Shown one piece after another: positions 1-3,680 of a DNA stretch of 38,727 bases; positions within the stretch are counted from its first letter, which is position 1, and the number at the start of each line of letters is the position of its first letter. Source of the DNA: a virus; UHGV virus genome UHGV-2005300. The stretch is one strand, 5' to 3'. The translations under genes and the position numbers were made by a program. Below the pieces are notes generated by a model that was given only the letters and a program-made list of their open reading frames with translations, had not been told where the DNA came from and ran no database searches.

Positions 1-105
1 TGCTGAGATTTCAACCTGTTGCAGTAAAAATGAGTAGATATAGGGCAAGTGTGCTGCCAAACCCATCTTTTACGGGGCGAAGGTAGATATTGTTAGAAGG
101 GTATC

Positions 106-120
106 TGGTGTCCCCTGCAG
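106..120. repeat. attL core TGGTGTCCCCTGCAG (displaced copy of the tRNA 3' end)
   Basis: Exact 15-bp match to 38652-38666; sequence diverges immediately on both sides. Confidence 0.8.
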
Positions 121-193
121 ACATCTACTTGAGGCGGCAGGGGATTGATTGGAATGGTGTTTTTTAGATGTGAAAAATATTTTACCCGCTATT

Positions 194-394
194 TTACCCA
201 TTGGCGCGGCTTAAGAGCTTATTTTTGAATTCACAATGGTCACGATATAACCATCTTGCTCGTCCGTGGATAACTTTGGCTTTAGGCAGGTCGCCGGACT
301 TAATCCGGTCATAGATGAAGGTCTTACCGAAGCCAGTATCAGCCATGATGAATTTCAAATCAACCAGTGAATCAGGTTGTAGTTCGTGTTGCAT
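194..394 (-). CDS. AlpA-family excisionase / small DNA-binding regulator
   Basis: 66 aa; motif MADTGFGKTFIYDRIKSGDLPKAKV resembles AlpA/Xis-type helix-turn-helix; GGAGA ribosome-binding site; last gene before attL. Confidence 0.6.
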   Translation of the reverse strand: MQHELQPDSLVDLKFIMADTGFGKTFIYDRIKSGDLPKAKVIHGRARWLYRDHCEFKNKLLSRANG

Positions 395-436
395 GAGTGC
401 TATCTCCGAATATGGAATCGAACCTGCAAATCAGGT

Positions 437-460
437 AATAAAAAAACCGCATTGATGCGG
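437..460 (-). terminator. Intrinsic terminator upstream of xis
   Basis: Minus-strand RNA CCGCAUcaAUGCGG followed by U7. Confidence 0.5.
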
Positions 461-517
461 CGATGGTAGGTCTGGATATCTTGATAAATGAAAATGCCTC
501 ATCGAGTGTGAGGCGGG

Positions 518-862
518 TTAGTCCTTGCGTAGCTCGCTGATTCTTCTGTAAGTCTCTGGTGCTTTGTTTCCGTGTATCTTCATTTCAGACTTCAACAGAG
601 CAACGAGAGAATCCCATTCGTTGAGGATGCCTTTGAATGCCGGAACGCGCTTTGCAACCTTGTCGAATGAATCTCTGATTTCTGGAATCTGCTCAACAAG
701 TGCAACGCATCGCCGGAAATCGGCTGCGTCATGTGGAGCACCGAAGCTATGACCATAGATATTCTTTTTCAGTCCACATGCGATTGAGGCAAGAGTTGCG
801 CTACTGATGCCGACATCGCCAGTCGATTGCCATTTCAAAACCTTCATAGCCAAATCTGACAT
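518..862 (-). CDS. Hypothetical protein (114 aa)
   Basis: ORF-track ORF 518-889 trimmed to the ATG at 862 (MSDLAMK...), because the upstream ATG lies inside the terminator hairpin. Confidence 0.5.
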   Translation of the reverse strand: MSDLAMKVLKWQSTGDVGISSATLASIACGLKKNIYGHSFGAPHDAADFRRCVALVEQIPEIRDSFDKVAKRVPAFKGILNEWDSLVALLKSEMKIHGNKAPETYRRISELRKD

Positions 863-874
863 TTCTTGTCTACA

Positions 875-897
875 ATAAAAAACCGCCATCAGGCGGC
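875..897 (-). terminator. Intrinsic terminator
   Basis: Minus-strand hairpin CCGCC-UGAU-GGCGG followed by U6; overlaps the stop of the 55-aa gene. Confidence 0.5.
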
Positions 898-1056
898 ATG
901 GTGTTCTTTCAGTTCTTCAATTCGAATATTGGTTACGTCTGCATGCGCTATCTGCGCCCATATCATCCAGTGGTTATAGCAGTCGTTGATGTTCTCTGCT
1001 TCGATAACTCTGTTGAATGGTTCTCCATTCCATTCACCTGTGACTCGGAAGTGCAT
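889..1056 (-). CDS. Hypothetical small protein (55 aa, MHFRVTGEWNGEPF...)
   Basis: Not in the ORF track (under 60 aa); ATG with GGAG ribosome-binding site 7 nt upstream; translated by hand. Confidence 0.4.
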   Translation of the reverse strand: MHFRVTGEWNGEPFNRVIEAENINDCYNHWMIWAQIAHADVTNIRIEELKEHHAA

Positions 1057-1068
1057 TTATCATCTCCA

Positions 1069-1094
1069 TAAAACAAAACTCGCCGTAGCGAGTT
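1069..1094 (-). terminator. Intrinsic terminator
   Basis: Minus-strand hairpin AACUCGC-uacg-GCGAGUU followed by a U-rich tract. Confidence 0.45.
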
Positions 1095-1139
1095 CAGATA
1101 TAATTTCCACCAAAGGCAGTAGTTGCTTGATGCTAAGAA

Positions 1140-1568
1140 TTATTCAATATCTATTCCTGTAATATCTTTTATCTTTTTCCTTGCAAAGCCTTTTGCTAGT
1201 GATTTTGAAACACTCATAAGTGTACTAATTCCCTCATCCTTAAAGTTTGTTTTTATAGCTTGCCAGACATCCTTTTGACGTAAGTCAGCAATAAAATCAT
1301 GCCCTCTTGCTGTCAACCTCAGTGGTACTTCGATCCAACTATATCCAACACCTTCCCCTAACGCTTTGGACATTATATGACCGAACCCAGGTTTTCCATC
1401 AACCCTGACTATTAATTCGTAGTCATATAATAATCGCATATGGAAAATAAAATCTTGGTCATATCTATTAAAGCCATTATCCTCTAGTTCACTAAGCATC
1501 GTGTCAGGGCCACGAGTTTTTTCGAATGCGATAAGTAGATCTTTTAGATATTGCTGGTCTAATTTCAT
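1140..1568 (-). CDS. Hypothetical protein (142 aa), AT-rich accessory gene
   Basis: Intact ORF with GGAGG ribosome-binding site 5 nt before the ATG; GC content visibly lower than neighbours; the motif LRLTARGHDFIADLRQKDVWQ may match a small phage DUF family (uncertain). Confidence 0.65.
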   Translation of the reverse strand: MKLDQQYLKDLLIAFEKTRGPDTMLSELEDNGFNRYDQDFIFHMRLLYDYELIVRVDGKPGFGHIMSKALGEGVGYSWIEVPLRLTARGHDFIADLRQKDVWQAIKTNFKDEGISTLMSVSKSLAKGFARKKIKDITGIDIE

Positions 1569-1578
1569 TGCCGCCTCC

Positions 1579-1590
1579 GTGACATGTCAC
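1579..1590. promoter_or_regulatory. Perfect 12-bp palindrome GTGACATGTCAC, candidate operator
   Basis: Sits immediately upstream of the ribosome-binding site of the 1140-1568 gene. Confidence 0.3.
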
Positions 1591-1757
1591 AGAGATTTAT
1601 ATCATTAATTTTGTTTCGTGCCAGCCTTTGGTCACCCAGCATTGTGAGTCACCATTACACGGGCATGAATTAACAGGAACTCTCTCGCCGCACTTACCGC
1701 AACGTTTTCTGCTGATCGATTTTATACGCCAGCGCACATGTGCATCATCCTGGCGGC

Positions 1758-2213
1758 TCAGTAACGCGATGTACTCACCAAACTCGCAAGGCGAATGCCT
1801 GAAGCGGCGCGTGGCTCAGTTACGATCCAGCATTTCAATTTCCTGAGCATCAAGTACAAGCTCCAGCTTACGCATACCGGATGATGCTTGCTTGGCTCTC
1901 TGATCGGCTTTGCGCTCTGCTGATGATTTAGCCATTCTGCTTTTCCTGCATTAGGAGAAAGACAATCATGGCGGCGCGGATACTTCCGGTATCTTTTTAC
2001 GCGATATTCCCCATCCAGAGCACATACAAGAAGAGATCCATCAACAGGAGTGAGTGATGAATCGACCACCAGCAATGCACCCTGCAATATTCCCTCACGA
2101 TGATGGCTACCAGCTGCCCTCAAGAAGTAGGTCGCTGAAGGATGTCTAATTATCTGCTGATCAAGAGAAATACGGCTCTCAGCATAATCCGCCGCAGGAG
2201 AAGGGAAGCCCAT
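1758..2213 (-). CDS. UmuD'-like S24-fold protein (HumD-like, no cleavable N-terminal arm), divergent C-terminus
   Basis: Starts M-GFPSPAADYAESRISLDQQIIRHPSATYF, closely matching E. coli UmuD from its Cys24/Gly25 cleavage site; the reading frame after VKRY no longer resembles UmuD. Confidence 0.6.
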   Translation of the reverse strand: MGFPSPAADYAESRISLDQQIIRHPSATYFLRAAGSHHREGILQGALLVVDSSLTPVDGSLLVCALDGEYRVKRYRKYPRRHDCLSPNAGKAEWLNHQQSAKPIREPSKHHPVCVSWSLYLMLRKLKCWIVTEPRAASGIRLASLVSTSRY

Positions 2214-2231
2214 AATACTCGCCTCTTAATG

Positions 2232-2274
2232 CTGTGTATATATACAGTATATGTTGAAGCTATATATTTTTGAA
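2232..2274 (-). promoter_or_regulatory. SOS promoter: LexA box CTGTGTATATATACAG overlapping -10 TATACT, with -35 TTCAAA
   Basis: CTGT-N8-ACAG consensus at 2232-2247, 19 bp upstream of the UmuD'-like ATG; 17-bp spacer between -35 and -10 (read on the minus strand). Confidence 0.7.
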
Positions 2275-2544
2275 CTCTATCTCTTAAAAAAGATGTTAAT
2301 AAGATGCTAACTATTGAAAGGCATAAATATATACTATTCCAACAAACGTTATTTTTAACAAATTTTTTCTCTCCGTTGACTTTTGCGAAAGCCTTGTCTG
2401 GCCTAAATTGCGCGGAAGCTACTTTTTCCTTCCTGAGTTATCCACAGAGTTATGCACTTGCATGTATAACCTATACACACTATCTTAATTCGCAAGACAT
2501 TGATGTTGCGGTATTGAAGGTTCATTGGGTTAAAAATAGACATT

Positions 2545-2575
2545 AAAAAGCCCAGTTGACTAGGCTGGGCTTTTT
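2545..2575. terminator. Bidirectional intrinsic terminator
   Basis: AAAAAGCCCAG-ttgactag-GCTGGGCTTTTT, with an A-run on one side and a T-run on the other. Confidence 0.55.
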
Positions 2576-2612
2576 AAAAGGAAACAGAGTTTGCGGCTCT
2601 GTTCCTGAGCCA

Positions 2613-2801
2613 TAAGTATCTGGCGACTGAATTAAGATTAACCGAATGTACTGGATTCATCAAGAAACGTTGAGTGGTCATACCAGGTAATAATGACCAT
2701 TTACTAAACATCGTTGTTCTCAAAGAAGATTTAAGTCCAGGTTTTTGGTGACTCTAAAACCTTACCTTAACTCGAAATCGTGCCGTAAGTATCTGGCGAC
2801 T
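2613..2801. repeat. Direct repeats TAAGTATCTGGCGACT (2613-2628, 2786-2801), part of a degenerate tandem duplication
   Basis: Two 16-bp copies; the 2771-2790 segment also resembles the 5' end of the small ORF at 2876. Confidence 0.5.
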
Positions 2802-2875
2802 ACAGATATTGCAACTGCAAAGGCAAGCCCAAAGGTATTTGCAGCTAGGCGCGATAAAACTAAGTGAGGCCTGTT

Positions 2876-2959
2876 ATGGTTAACTTACTGTTCAAAATCG
2901 TGCCGCCGATGTTCGCGATTATCAAAGCGATCATTGAGTACGTAAACCAGCGTCCATAA
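2876..2959 (+). CDS. Small hydrophobic peptide (27 aa, MVNLLFKIVPPMFAIIKAIIEYVNQRP)
   Basis: GAGG ribosome-binding site 6 nt upstream; followed by a GC-rich 8-bp stem hairpin at 2973-2997; opposite strand to the surrounding operon; under the ORF-track length cutoff. Confidence 0.35.
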   Translation: MVNLLFKIVPPMFAIIKAIIEYVNQRP

Positions 2960-3014
2960 CGCTAGTTGCTACAGGCCCCATCAAGAGCATGGGGCCTCTT
3001 TATCGTACTATTGC

Positions 3015-3680
3015 TTATTTTTTACGGACTGAGTTGTTCACTGCTCTGGCAATCTTCTCCCGCAATTGCTGCGTTCCGTGGTACTGAACCGCAATATCCC
3101 TCAACTCGTTCACCAGTTCTCGAATCTGGTGATCTTTAAGCTCATTATTTGGGTGATTGGTAACAACTCTGGTTAATTCACCCTTGTCTTTTGCTCTTAC
3201 GTATGCAGCTCTTGTGCATTCGACCCATGTATTACCGCCTACATTAACTTCGTAGATTAGGCTGGACTTATCTGTCAATTCGGAACAAATACGGGCCGTG
3301 GTCTGGCAACTAGAGCATTCGCAGTTATCGCGGAAACCGTGGTCTACTGGCTTCGGTTTCACATCATCAACTTTTTCTACCCTATTGGAATTTAAATACT
3401 TCGAAGCCTTGCTATGCCAATCGCTGGTTTTAGGATCTTGTCCATCCATCAAACGCCAGGCTTCAGCGATTAACTCATAACTAGTGACTGTAGCTTCCTG
3501 CGCATCACCAATAAGTCGTGTAATCTCTCTTTCAAGCCGACCGCCTAGCTCTGTTTTAGTGCAATGTTCTGACCAATCGCCAGCCTCAAGCAGCGCGAGA
3601 ATGCTTAAAATATCGTCCAATAGAACGGTAGTATTATCGACTTCCTTCTGAAACTCACCGGCTACTGATTTATGCATCAT
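3015..3680 (-). CDS. Hypothetical early protein (221 aa)
   Basis: Long intact ORF coupled (ATGA) to the upstream gene; contains a cysteine cluster DNCECSSCQTTARIC; no family recognised by eye. Confidence 0.7.
   Translation of the reverse strand: MMHKSVAGEFQKEVDNTTVLLDDILSILALLEAGDWSEHCTKTELGGRLEREITRLIGDAQEATVTSYELIAEAWRLMDGQDPKTSDWHSKASKYLNSNRVEKVDDVKPKPVDHGFRDNCECSSCQTTARICSELTDKSSLIYEVNVGGNTWVECTRAAYVRAKDKGELTRVVTNHPNNELKDHQIRELVNELRDIAVQYHGTQQLREKIARAVNNSVRKK

Follow-up and report, generated by a model that had tools for sequence, protein, structure and literature searches.

A probable humD pseudogene downstream of a predicted LexA operator in a P22-like prophage

The UHGV virus genome UHGV-2005300, a stretch of 38,727 nucleotides referred to here as the window, looks like a complete P22-like prophage and matches Sf101, IME10, HZ41 and other phages over much of its first 25 kb. 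The near-identical prophage of strain AST215 carries tailspike, gp5 capsid, portal, terminase, lysis, Q, nin, replication and cI/cro genes as well as N, kil, an erf-type recombinase, ssb and abc, which are followed by a humD remnant, a broken regulator gene, a DUF2513 gene and torI. A tRNA gene at the far end of the window (38655-38726, minus strand; Rfam tRNA, 63.4 bits) is probably the attachment-site tRNA of the prophage, and no Rfam RNA family other than this tRNA was found in the window.

The feature under study is an open reading frame (ORF) on the minus strand, which starts with the ATG at 2213, ends with the stop codon at 1760..1758 and encodes a protein of 151 aa with the N-terminus MGFPSPAADYAESRISLDQQIIRHPSATYF.... 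Its first part is a humD remnant that comprises codons 1–82 of a 129-codon gene (1968..2213, minus strand), as identified by tblastn, DNA identity and a pseudogene call of PGAP. The rest, codons 83–151 and the stop codon (1758..1967, minus strand), is an out-of-frame tail according to frame analysis. A Shine-Dalgarno sequence, AAGAGG, can be read 8 nt before the ATG (2222..2227, minus strand), behind a sigma-70-like promoter and a predicted LexA operator. Downstream on the same strand lie a phrog_536 'transcriptional regulator' pseudogene (1597..1935), in which the Cys40 codon TGT is changed to TGA at 1818..1816, and an intact DUF2513 gene (1140..1568; PF10711, 41.3 bits against a cut-off of 29.6).

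humD is a phage gene for a ready-made UmuD'-type subunit whose partner in SOS mutagenesis is the host UmuC, and the HumD of P1 has reportedly been characterised (McLenigan et al. 1999, J Bacteriol 181:7005, as cited in PMC4713147 and PMC8460599). In a delta-umuD umuC+ strain, P1 HumD reportedly restores UV or MMS mutagenesis. E. coli UmuD, in contrast, is a 139-aa precursor that needs RecA*-mediated self-cleavage. The ORF product is an S24-family homologue of UmuD' (PDB 1UMU, 1I4V and 1AY9; full-length UmuD, 8GMT). In the comparison with solved structures it aligns with residues 1–79 of the 116 residues of UmuD' (1umu_A; E = 4e-21) and with residues 25–103 of full-length UmuD (8gmt_B), which places its residue 2 (Gly) on Gly25 of UmuD, the first residue of UmuD'. 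The HumD-family trait of a start at the Gly25 equivalent, without a pro-peptide, is therefore present. The initial annotation had likewise placed the start at the UmuD autocleavage residue and followed the likeness to UmuD through the motifs HPSATYF and DGEYRVKRY, and both observations are correct. The residues of the Ser-Lys dyad are also kept in the alignment (Ser36 for UmuD Ser60, Lys73 for Lys97).

The profile searches agree with a HumD-type N-terminal part. Pfam Peptidase_S24 (PF00717) matches the ORF with 42.3 bits (cut-off 23.3) over profile positions 8–89 of 116. The NCBIfam HumD equivalog NF051876 gives 139.5 bits over positions 1–95 of 129; this score is above the family cut-off of 120 despite the truncation, which counts against a pseudogene, and comes entirely from the N-terminal part, with true homology ending at residue 82. 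The intact HumD obtains 219.3 bits over positions 1–129 of the same profile. With the NCBIfam UmuD subfamily model NF007621, the ORF (82.9 bits) and intact HumD (87.9 bits) are both under the cut-off of 110, which is expected for the latter because HumD is a separate family.

Two intact genes were used for close comparison. P1 HumD (AAQ14181) shares with the ORF the M-GFPSPAADY start at the UmuD cleavage point, an ADSHH-type motif and the equivalents of the Ser and Lys residues; its gene has a LexA operator just upstream of the start and is 85% identical in DNA from the box to codon ~80. However, P1 HumD has 129 aa with the conserved C-terminus ...VFGVITHVINDARSGEFDDCPVI, whereas the window contains codons 1–82 followed by unrelated sequence. 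The closest intact relative is the HumD of a Cyrano-like phage-plasmid, pMB3825A_2 (WP_000506720.1), which is annotated as an intact 'HumD family translesion DNA polymerase', is identical to the protein of phage Cyrano and shares 91.5% identity with P1 HumD. By BLAST, this phage-plasmid (L001 3001-4376) corresponds to window 1975-3350 with 98.4% DNA identity, and the likeness spans the 5' part of the gene, the operator, the promoter and an upstream stretch of ~800 bp without an annotated gene. The intact protein differs in its length (129 aa) and in Met31, Asp35 and Gln81, compared with Leu31, Gly35 and Arg81 in the window, and its operator has one mismatch to the consensus compared with two in the window. 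Copies of the housekeeping genes metG and apbC lie directly downstream of the intact humD in pMB3825A_2 (L001 1-2812).

The likeness to HumD stops abruptly. When intact HumD was searched against the whole window with tblastn, a single match was obtained, which covers aa 1–82 (2213..1968; 96% identity, E = 2.6e-51), and the 47 C-terminal residues (83–129) found nothing better than E = 0.17 in any frame of the window. At the DNA level, the alignment with intact humD is near-identical through ...AAGTATCCGCGCCGCCAT and shows no identity beyond, so that homology ends at ~1968-1976. These alignments define a recombination or deletion junction, ...CCGCGCCGCCAT/GATTGTC..., inside codons 80–82 (1968..1976, minus strand). 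The closest annotated DNA also splits the ORF: from ~1975 rightwards the window is 97–98% identical to phage-plasmids of ~100–113 kb, while the full stretch is matched by six chromosomes only. Since the C-terminus of HumD is present in no frame and the DNA homology itself ends, the gene is truncated rather than frameshifted. A frameshift, the usual cause when a C-terminus suddenly departs from its family, had been raised in the initial annotation as a frameshifted umuD, and is rejected after translation of the three frames and tblastn left no trace of the HumD C-terminus in any of them. A sequencing or assembly error is opposed by the recurrence of the junction: about 140 complete genomes that were assembled independently have it, as does a Logan contig. 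A complete humD disrupted by a simple frameshift or by such an error is thus hardly credible.

The missing part holds the block that the family conserves most. In an alignment of 36 diverse HumD proteins, 12 invariant columns (G89, E92, F108, G109, V110, T112, I115, D117, R119, E122, D124 and P127) fall within the region absent here, and the conserved C-terminal block VFGVITxIINDARxGEFDDCPVM is missing from every frame of the whole window. The complete S24 core corresponds to UmuD residues 40–139; the ORF covers residues 1–79 of the 116 of 1UMU and has no counterpart of UmuD residues 104–139. AlphaFold2 models built on alignments of 36–38 sequences were of low confidence for both intact HumD (mean pLDDT 51.9) and the 151-aa ORF (44.4), and the view that the ORF cannot fold therefore rests on the coverage of solved UmuD' and on family conservation. 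A review (PMC3901139) contains nothing specific on the C-terminus of UmuD'. The proposal that the protein would be made as an already activated UmuD' fails on this point, because the last 47 residues of HumD, with the most conserved block of the family, are not there.

The tail has a different origin. Residues 83–151 (69 aa) show no similarity to UmuD, as the initial annotation had noticed for the C-terminal ~70 aa, or to HumD, and they are encoded by the +1 frame of a 32-nt spacer and of the first 175 nt of the next gene. That gene is intact in strain YJ6, where it encodes a regulator of 112 aa, MAKSATEHKADQRAKQ...CGKCGERVPVNSCPCNGDSQCW... (phrog_536, E = 7e-48). The intact regulator is RHH/zinc-ribbon-like and has a Cys-rich C-terminus, CGKCG...CPCNGDSQCW. 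Five intact homologues, down to 70% DNA identity, keep the 112-aa frame open and contain 3–8 stop codons in the frame of the tail, and the substitutions in the regulator gene are mostly at third positions (38 of 70 and 58 of 103). Selection acts on the regulator's own frame. Among 328 database homologues of the 151-aa ORF, the tail is common to one cluster only (P0001, 38 members); the others cover the first ~54–63% of the ORF and are typically 126–130 aa long. The tail is also predicted with pLDDT below 50. The reading of the foreign C-terminus as a diverged domain is therefore not tenable, since the tail comes from a spacer and a neighbouring gene, both read in the +1 frame, and the DNA homology to humD has ended.

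The two broken genes have been recognised before. On near-identical chromosomes, PGAP calls window 1968..2213 'incomplete... missing C-terminus' and 1597..1935 'internal stop'. The RefSeq pseudogenes ACZ46T_RS13330 (AST215) and BWI86_RS29465 (13C1065T) represent the same locus at 99.5–99.9% identity with the coordinates 1968..2213, labelled 'HumD family translesion DNA polymerase / S24 family peptidase; incomplete; missing C-terminus'. AST215 differs from the window in a retained Asp35 and a slightly different operator. The locus is in this sense a known kind of pseudogene, because HumD is a characterised family and the exact locus is already a partial pseudogene in RefSeq. Four of the six complete-genome matches listed label the locus 'S24 family peptidase', and the 13C1065T record is flagged as an incomplete pseudogene. 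'S24 peptidase' or 'UmuD-like' calls at this position, whether made automatically or by eye, should not be taken to mean that a working mutagenesis gene is present.

We conclude that the locus is very probably a humD pseudogene, which was truncated by an old recombination and now reads out of frame into the next gene. An ancestral humD with its LexA-controlled promoter, located on P1-like or Cyrano-like phage-plasmid DNA, would have been cut after codon ~81, and illegitimate recombination or deletion would have fused its 5' part to prophage sequence that begins 32 nt before an unrelated regulator gene. Such an event would leave the promoter, the LexA operator, the ribosome-binding site, the start codon and 82 codons, followed by 69 codons in the wrong frame, and would remove the invariant C-terminal block and with it about a third of the S24 fold. 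With this loss, the 151-aa product should not be a functional UmuD' or HumD subunit; coverage of the fold and family conservation both point to a lost coding function, and the truncated ORF is predicted not to replace UmuD' in an assay with UmuC. The locus also offers a clear example of phage-plasmids (P1/P7-like, Cyrano-like) that exchange DNA with integrated lambdoid or P22-like prophages.

What counts against a pseudogene is that the ORF is open in two sequence variants and that it has kept all its expression signals, which would allow a product to be made. The initial annotation had left the choice between a mutagenesis modulator and a decaying remnant; the truncation and the out-of-frame tail bear out the remnant, and the modulator finds no support. 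A functional, diverged UmuD'-like modulator made of the 82 residues and the new tail, for example a dominant-negative partner of UmuD/UmuD' or UmuC, could draw on an open and expressible frame, on the retained UmuD' N-terminal arm with Ser36 and Lys73, and on the second fusion variant, which is 91% identical and likewise open. However, its tail would be an alternative frame of a gene that is selected in another frame, with homologues confined to one cluster and a low predicted confidence; the invariant C-terminal block is missing, and in most sequences with the junction the start codon is gone. We consider such a modulator very unlikely.

The sequence GSHH, ORF residues 35–38, aligns with D59-S60-M61-I62 of UmuD with the Ser kept. 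P1 and Cyrano-type HumD read AADSHH and the HK140 homologue reads GATHY; the 36 aligned family members vary at position 35 (D, R, C, A, N, T, K, Q) and have either Ser or Thr at position 36. The motif of the HumD relatives is xSHF/DSHH and not GDSM. The oddity that had been pointed out, GSHH in place of GDSM, is literally there, but it is a normal feature of HumD. Decay of the active site, which had been a candidate explanation, is ruled out by the ADSHH of P1 and Cyrano-type HumD and by the variability of position 35; with Ser36 and Lys73 aligned, GSHH is a trait of the family. The window departs from the P1/Cyrano-type motif by D35G only. The sister prophage in AST215 retains Asp35 (GAT), which makes this change recent and later than the truncation.

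The junction is far more widespread than the window type. The sequence ...CCGCGCCGCCAT/GATTGTCTTTCTCC... occurs in about 140 of 5,426 complete E. coli genomes, and an identical junction is present in ATCC 8739, KS-NP019 and Logan contig L013. Six genomes only are of the window type, which keeps the 5' part, the promoter and the start codon. About 134 are of the ATCC 8739 type and carry the junction in lambda-like prophages at ybhC/att-lambda, with the promoter and codons 1–45 lost. ATCC 8739 (ECOLC_RS26410, 'DNA repair protein') and KS-NP019 share the 3' junction with the window, but retain codons ~46–81 only: the promoter, the operator and codons 1–45 with the start codon are gone, and an in-frame TAA is found in ATCC 8739. 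The TGA at Cys40 of the regulator gene is the same in ATCC 8739 and KS-NP019. The third type, on contig L013, lies in a lambda-like early-left operon (gam...Ea22), where a homologue of hot (Pol III theta) and a P1-type LexA box (TACTGTATGAATAAACAGTA) accompany the same truncated humD and the regulator gene is intact; for this allele (hot, P1-type box and truncated humD), no complete E. coli genome covers the full query. Because the junction is found in three contexts, one of which (L013) has an intact regulator gene, it is older than the nonsense mutation in the regulator.

Compared site by site, the window copy is a mosaic in which Cyrano-type segments are combined with L013/ATCC-type ones. 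By these comparisons, the junction has since recombined onto at least three upstream contexts through the homology of the humD 5' part. The great majority of intact humD 3' ends, at 705 of 758 places, lie on plasmids. In YJ6, an IS1 end lies 9 nt from the junction position, and other phages have a different gene upstream, which the regulator gene overlaps. A PHROG of 40 residues (34005) matches the regulator stub, and the truncated form thus recurs in phage records. In HK140 (L008 2501-3006), a putative attP overlaps the 3' end of a full-length humD homologue. Stx2 phages, Sf101, mEp234 and E212 contain only residues ~45–128 of a humD homologue, which in the Stx2 phages and mEp234 is near one end of the genome record, and the ATCC 8739 fragment likewise begins at codon ~46. 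In lambdoid phages, recombination or integration may recur at humD-like genes. The remnant of the window type is also found outside a complete prophage. In 13C1065T (L012 1-8300), the first ~3.7 kb of the window lie in a degraded KplE1-like element at the dsdC/argW locus, with window 1400-2700 99.9% identical and the order torI...humD remnant...IS3, tail-fibre fragment, acyltransferase, intS and tRNA-Arg. The remnant thus survives both in a complete P22-like prophage and in the remains of a cryptic one.

In front of the remnant, the ORF retains a genuine-looking LexA operator at the place known from P1. The predicted operator (2230..2249; TACTGTATATATACACAGCA on the gene strand) agrees with the consensus TACTGTATATATATACAGTA at 18 of 20 positions, and none of 100 shuffled sequences contained any match with three or fewer mismatches. 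In contrast, the bare core CTGT-N8-ACAG (2232-2247) is not significant, with 0.41 expected by chance and at least one in 34 of 100 shuffles. The 20-mer overlaps the –10 hexamer; from its end to the ATG there are 16 nt, and from the end of its core 18 nt. The box reported by the initial annotation is thus there as an operator with the CTGT-N8-ACAG core and the overlap with the –10 hexamer; its spacing, measured from the core, is 18 nt and not 19. Its position is that of the LexA site annotated in the P1 record AF234173 'in the regulatory region of lxr and humD', and the P1, Cyrano-type, AST215 and L013 versions of the site all have the CTGT/ACAG core but different flanks. humD has been described as a LexA-regulated SOS gene (PMC9603915). 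P1 has a divergent lxr across the box, whereas the window has none: a tblastn search of the whole window for an lxr homologue gave a best E value of 0.36, at another place.

The sigma-70-like promoter, TTCAAA-17 nt-TATACT (2246..2274, minus strand), matches the consensus at 9 of 12 positions in a scan and is identical in the Cyrano-like phage-plasmid. The region has about as many promoter-like sites as shuffles would give (4 against 3.5 expected), so the support for this promoter is positional only. The regulatory part of the gene is probably still functional and the surviving promoter still under LexA control. After DNA damage, LexA cleavage would probably de-repress it, and from the remnant only an aberrant polypeptide would be made. 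The SOS transcript would begin near 2240, cover the remnant, the broken regulator gene and DUF2513, and probably stop at an intrinsic-terminator-like hairpin of 8 pairs with a T-run (1076..1095, minus strand), found in a hairpin scan. The DUF2513 gene is the last before this first good terminator and could be co-transcribed from the surviving promoter. An orphan LexA operator with its promoter could in this way add a small SOS-inducible transcript to a prophage. The usefulness of the transcript is doubtful, because most carriers of the junction have lost the promoter.

These elements also bear on a further explanation, in which the coding part is dead and the retained LexA-controlled promoter has been captured to put the phrog_536 regulator (where intact) and DUF2513 under SOS control, independent of cleavage of the prophage repressor. 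The promoter, operator and ribosome-binding site are intact and near-consensus, and the downstream genes lie on the same strand with gaps of 28–32 nt and no convincing terminator before 1095..1076. On L013, the junction precedes an intact regulator gene with the P1-type LexA box kept, and residues 9–48 of the regulator show a faint, sub-threshold match to the YbfE 'LexA regulated protein' family (E = 0.007; 16.8 bits against a cut-off of 62). However, the promoter and operator are deleted in about 134 of the about 140 complete genomes with the junction, the first downstream gene has a nonsense codon in the window, and the downstream genes are already within the early-left transcription unit of the prophage. 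Promoter capture is therefore an improbable reading, although a better one than the modulator; if true, it would be a regulatory exaptation of a pseudogene and the reason why the dead gene persists in these few prophages.

The flanks of the pseudogene show several minor features. Within window 1-2300, terminator-like hairpins are enriched between DUF2513 and torI (8 found, 1.6 expected from shuffles), with those on the minus strand at 446-461, 496-514, 882-898 and 1076-1095, which suggests separate insulation of the small accessory genes located upstream of the excisionase. On the other side, the stretch at 2250..3014 (~765 bp), which carries no annotated gene in the window or in phage Cyrano, is 99.5% identical to Cyrano and was co-inherited with the humD 5' part. 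It matches no Rfam family, and over its first ~210 bp it shares 84% identity with the upf91.x-LPhot/DnaA-box region of P7 and a P1 variant. A pair of DnaA-box-like sequences is present at 2438-2446 (TTATCCACA) and 2450-2458 (TTATGCACT). A GC-rich hairpin, AGCCCAG...CTGGGCT (2546-2582), is flanked by an A-run and a T-run and looks like a bidirectional intrinsic terminator. Together with a promoter-like site on the plus strand (2241-2268), this hairpin could bound a divergent transcript of ~300 nt that shares the LexA box.
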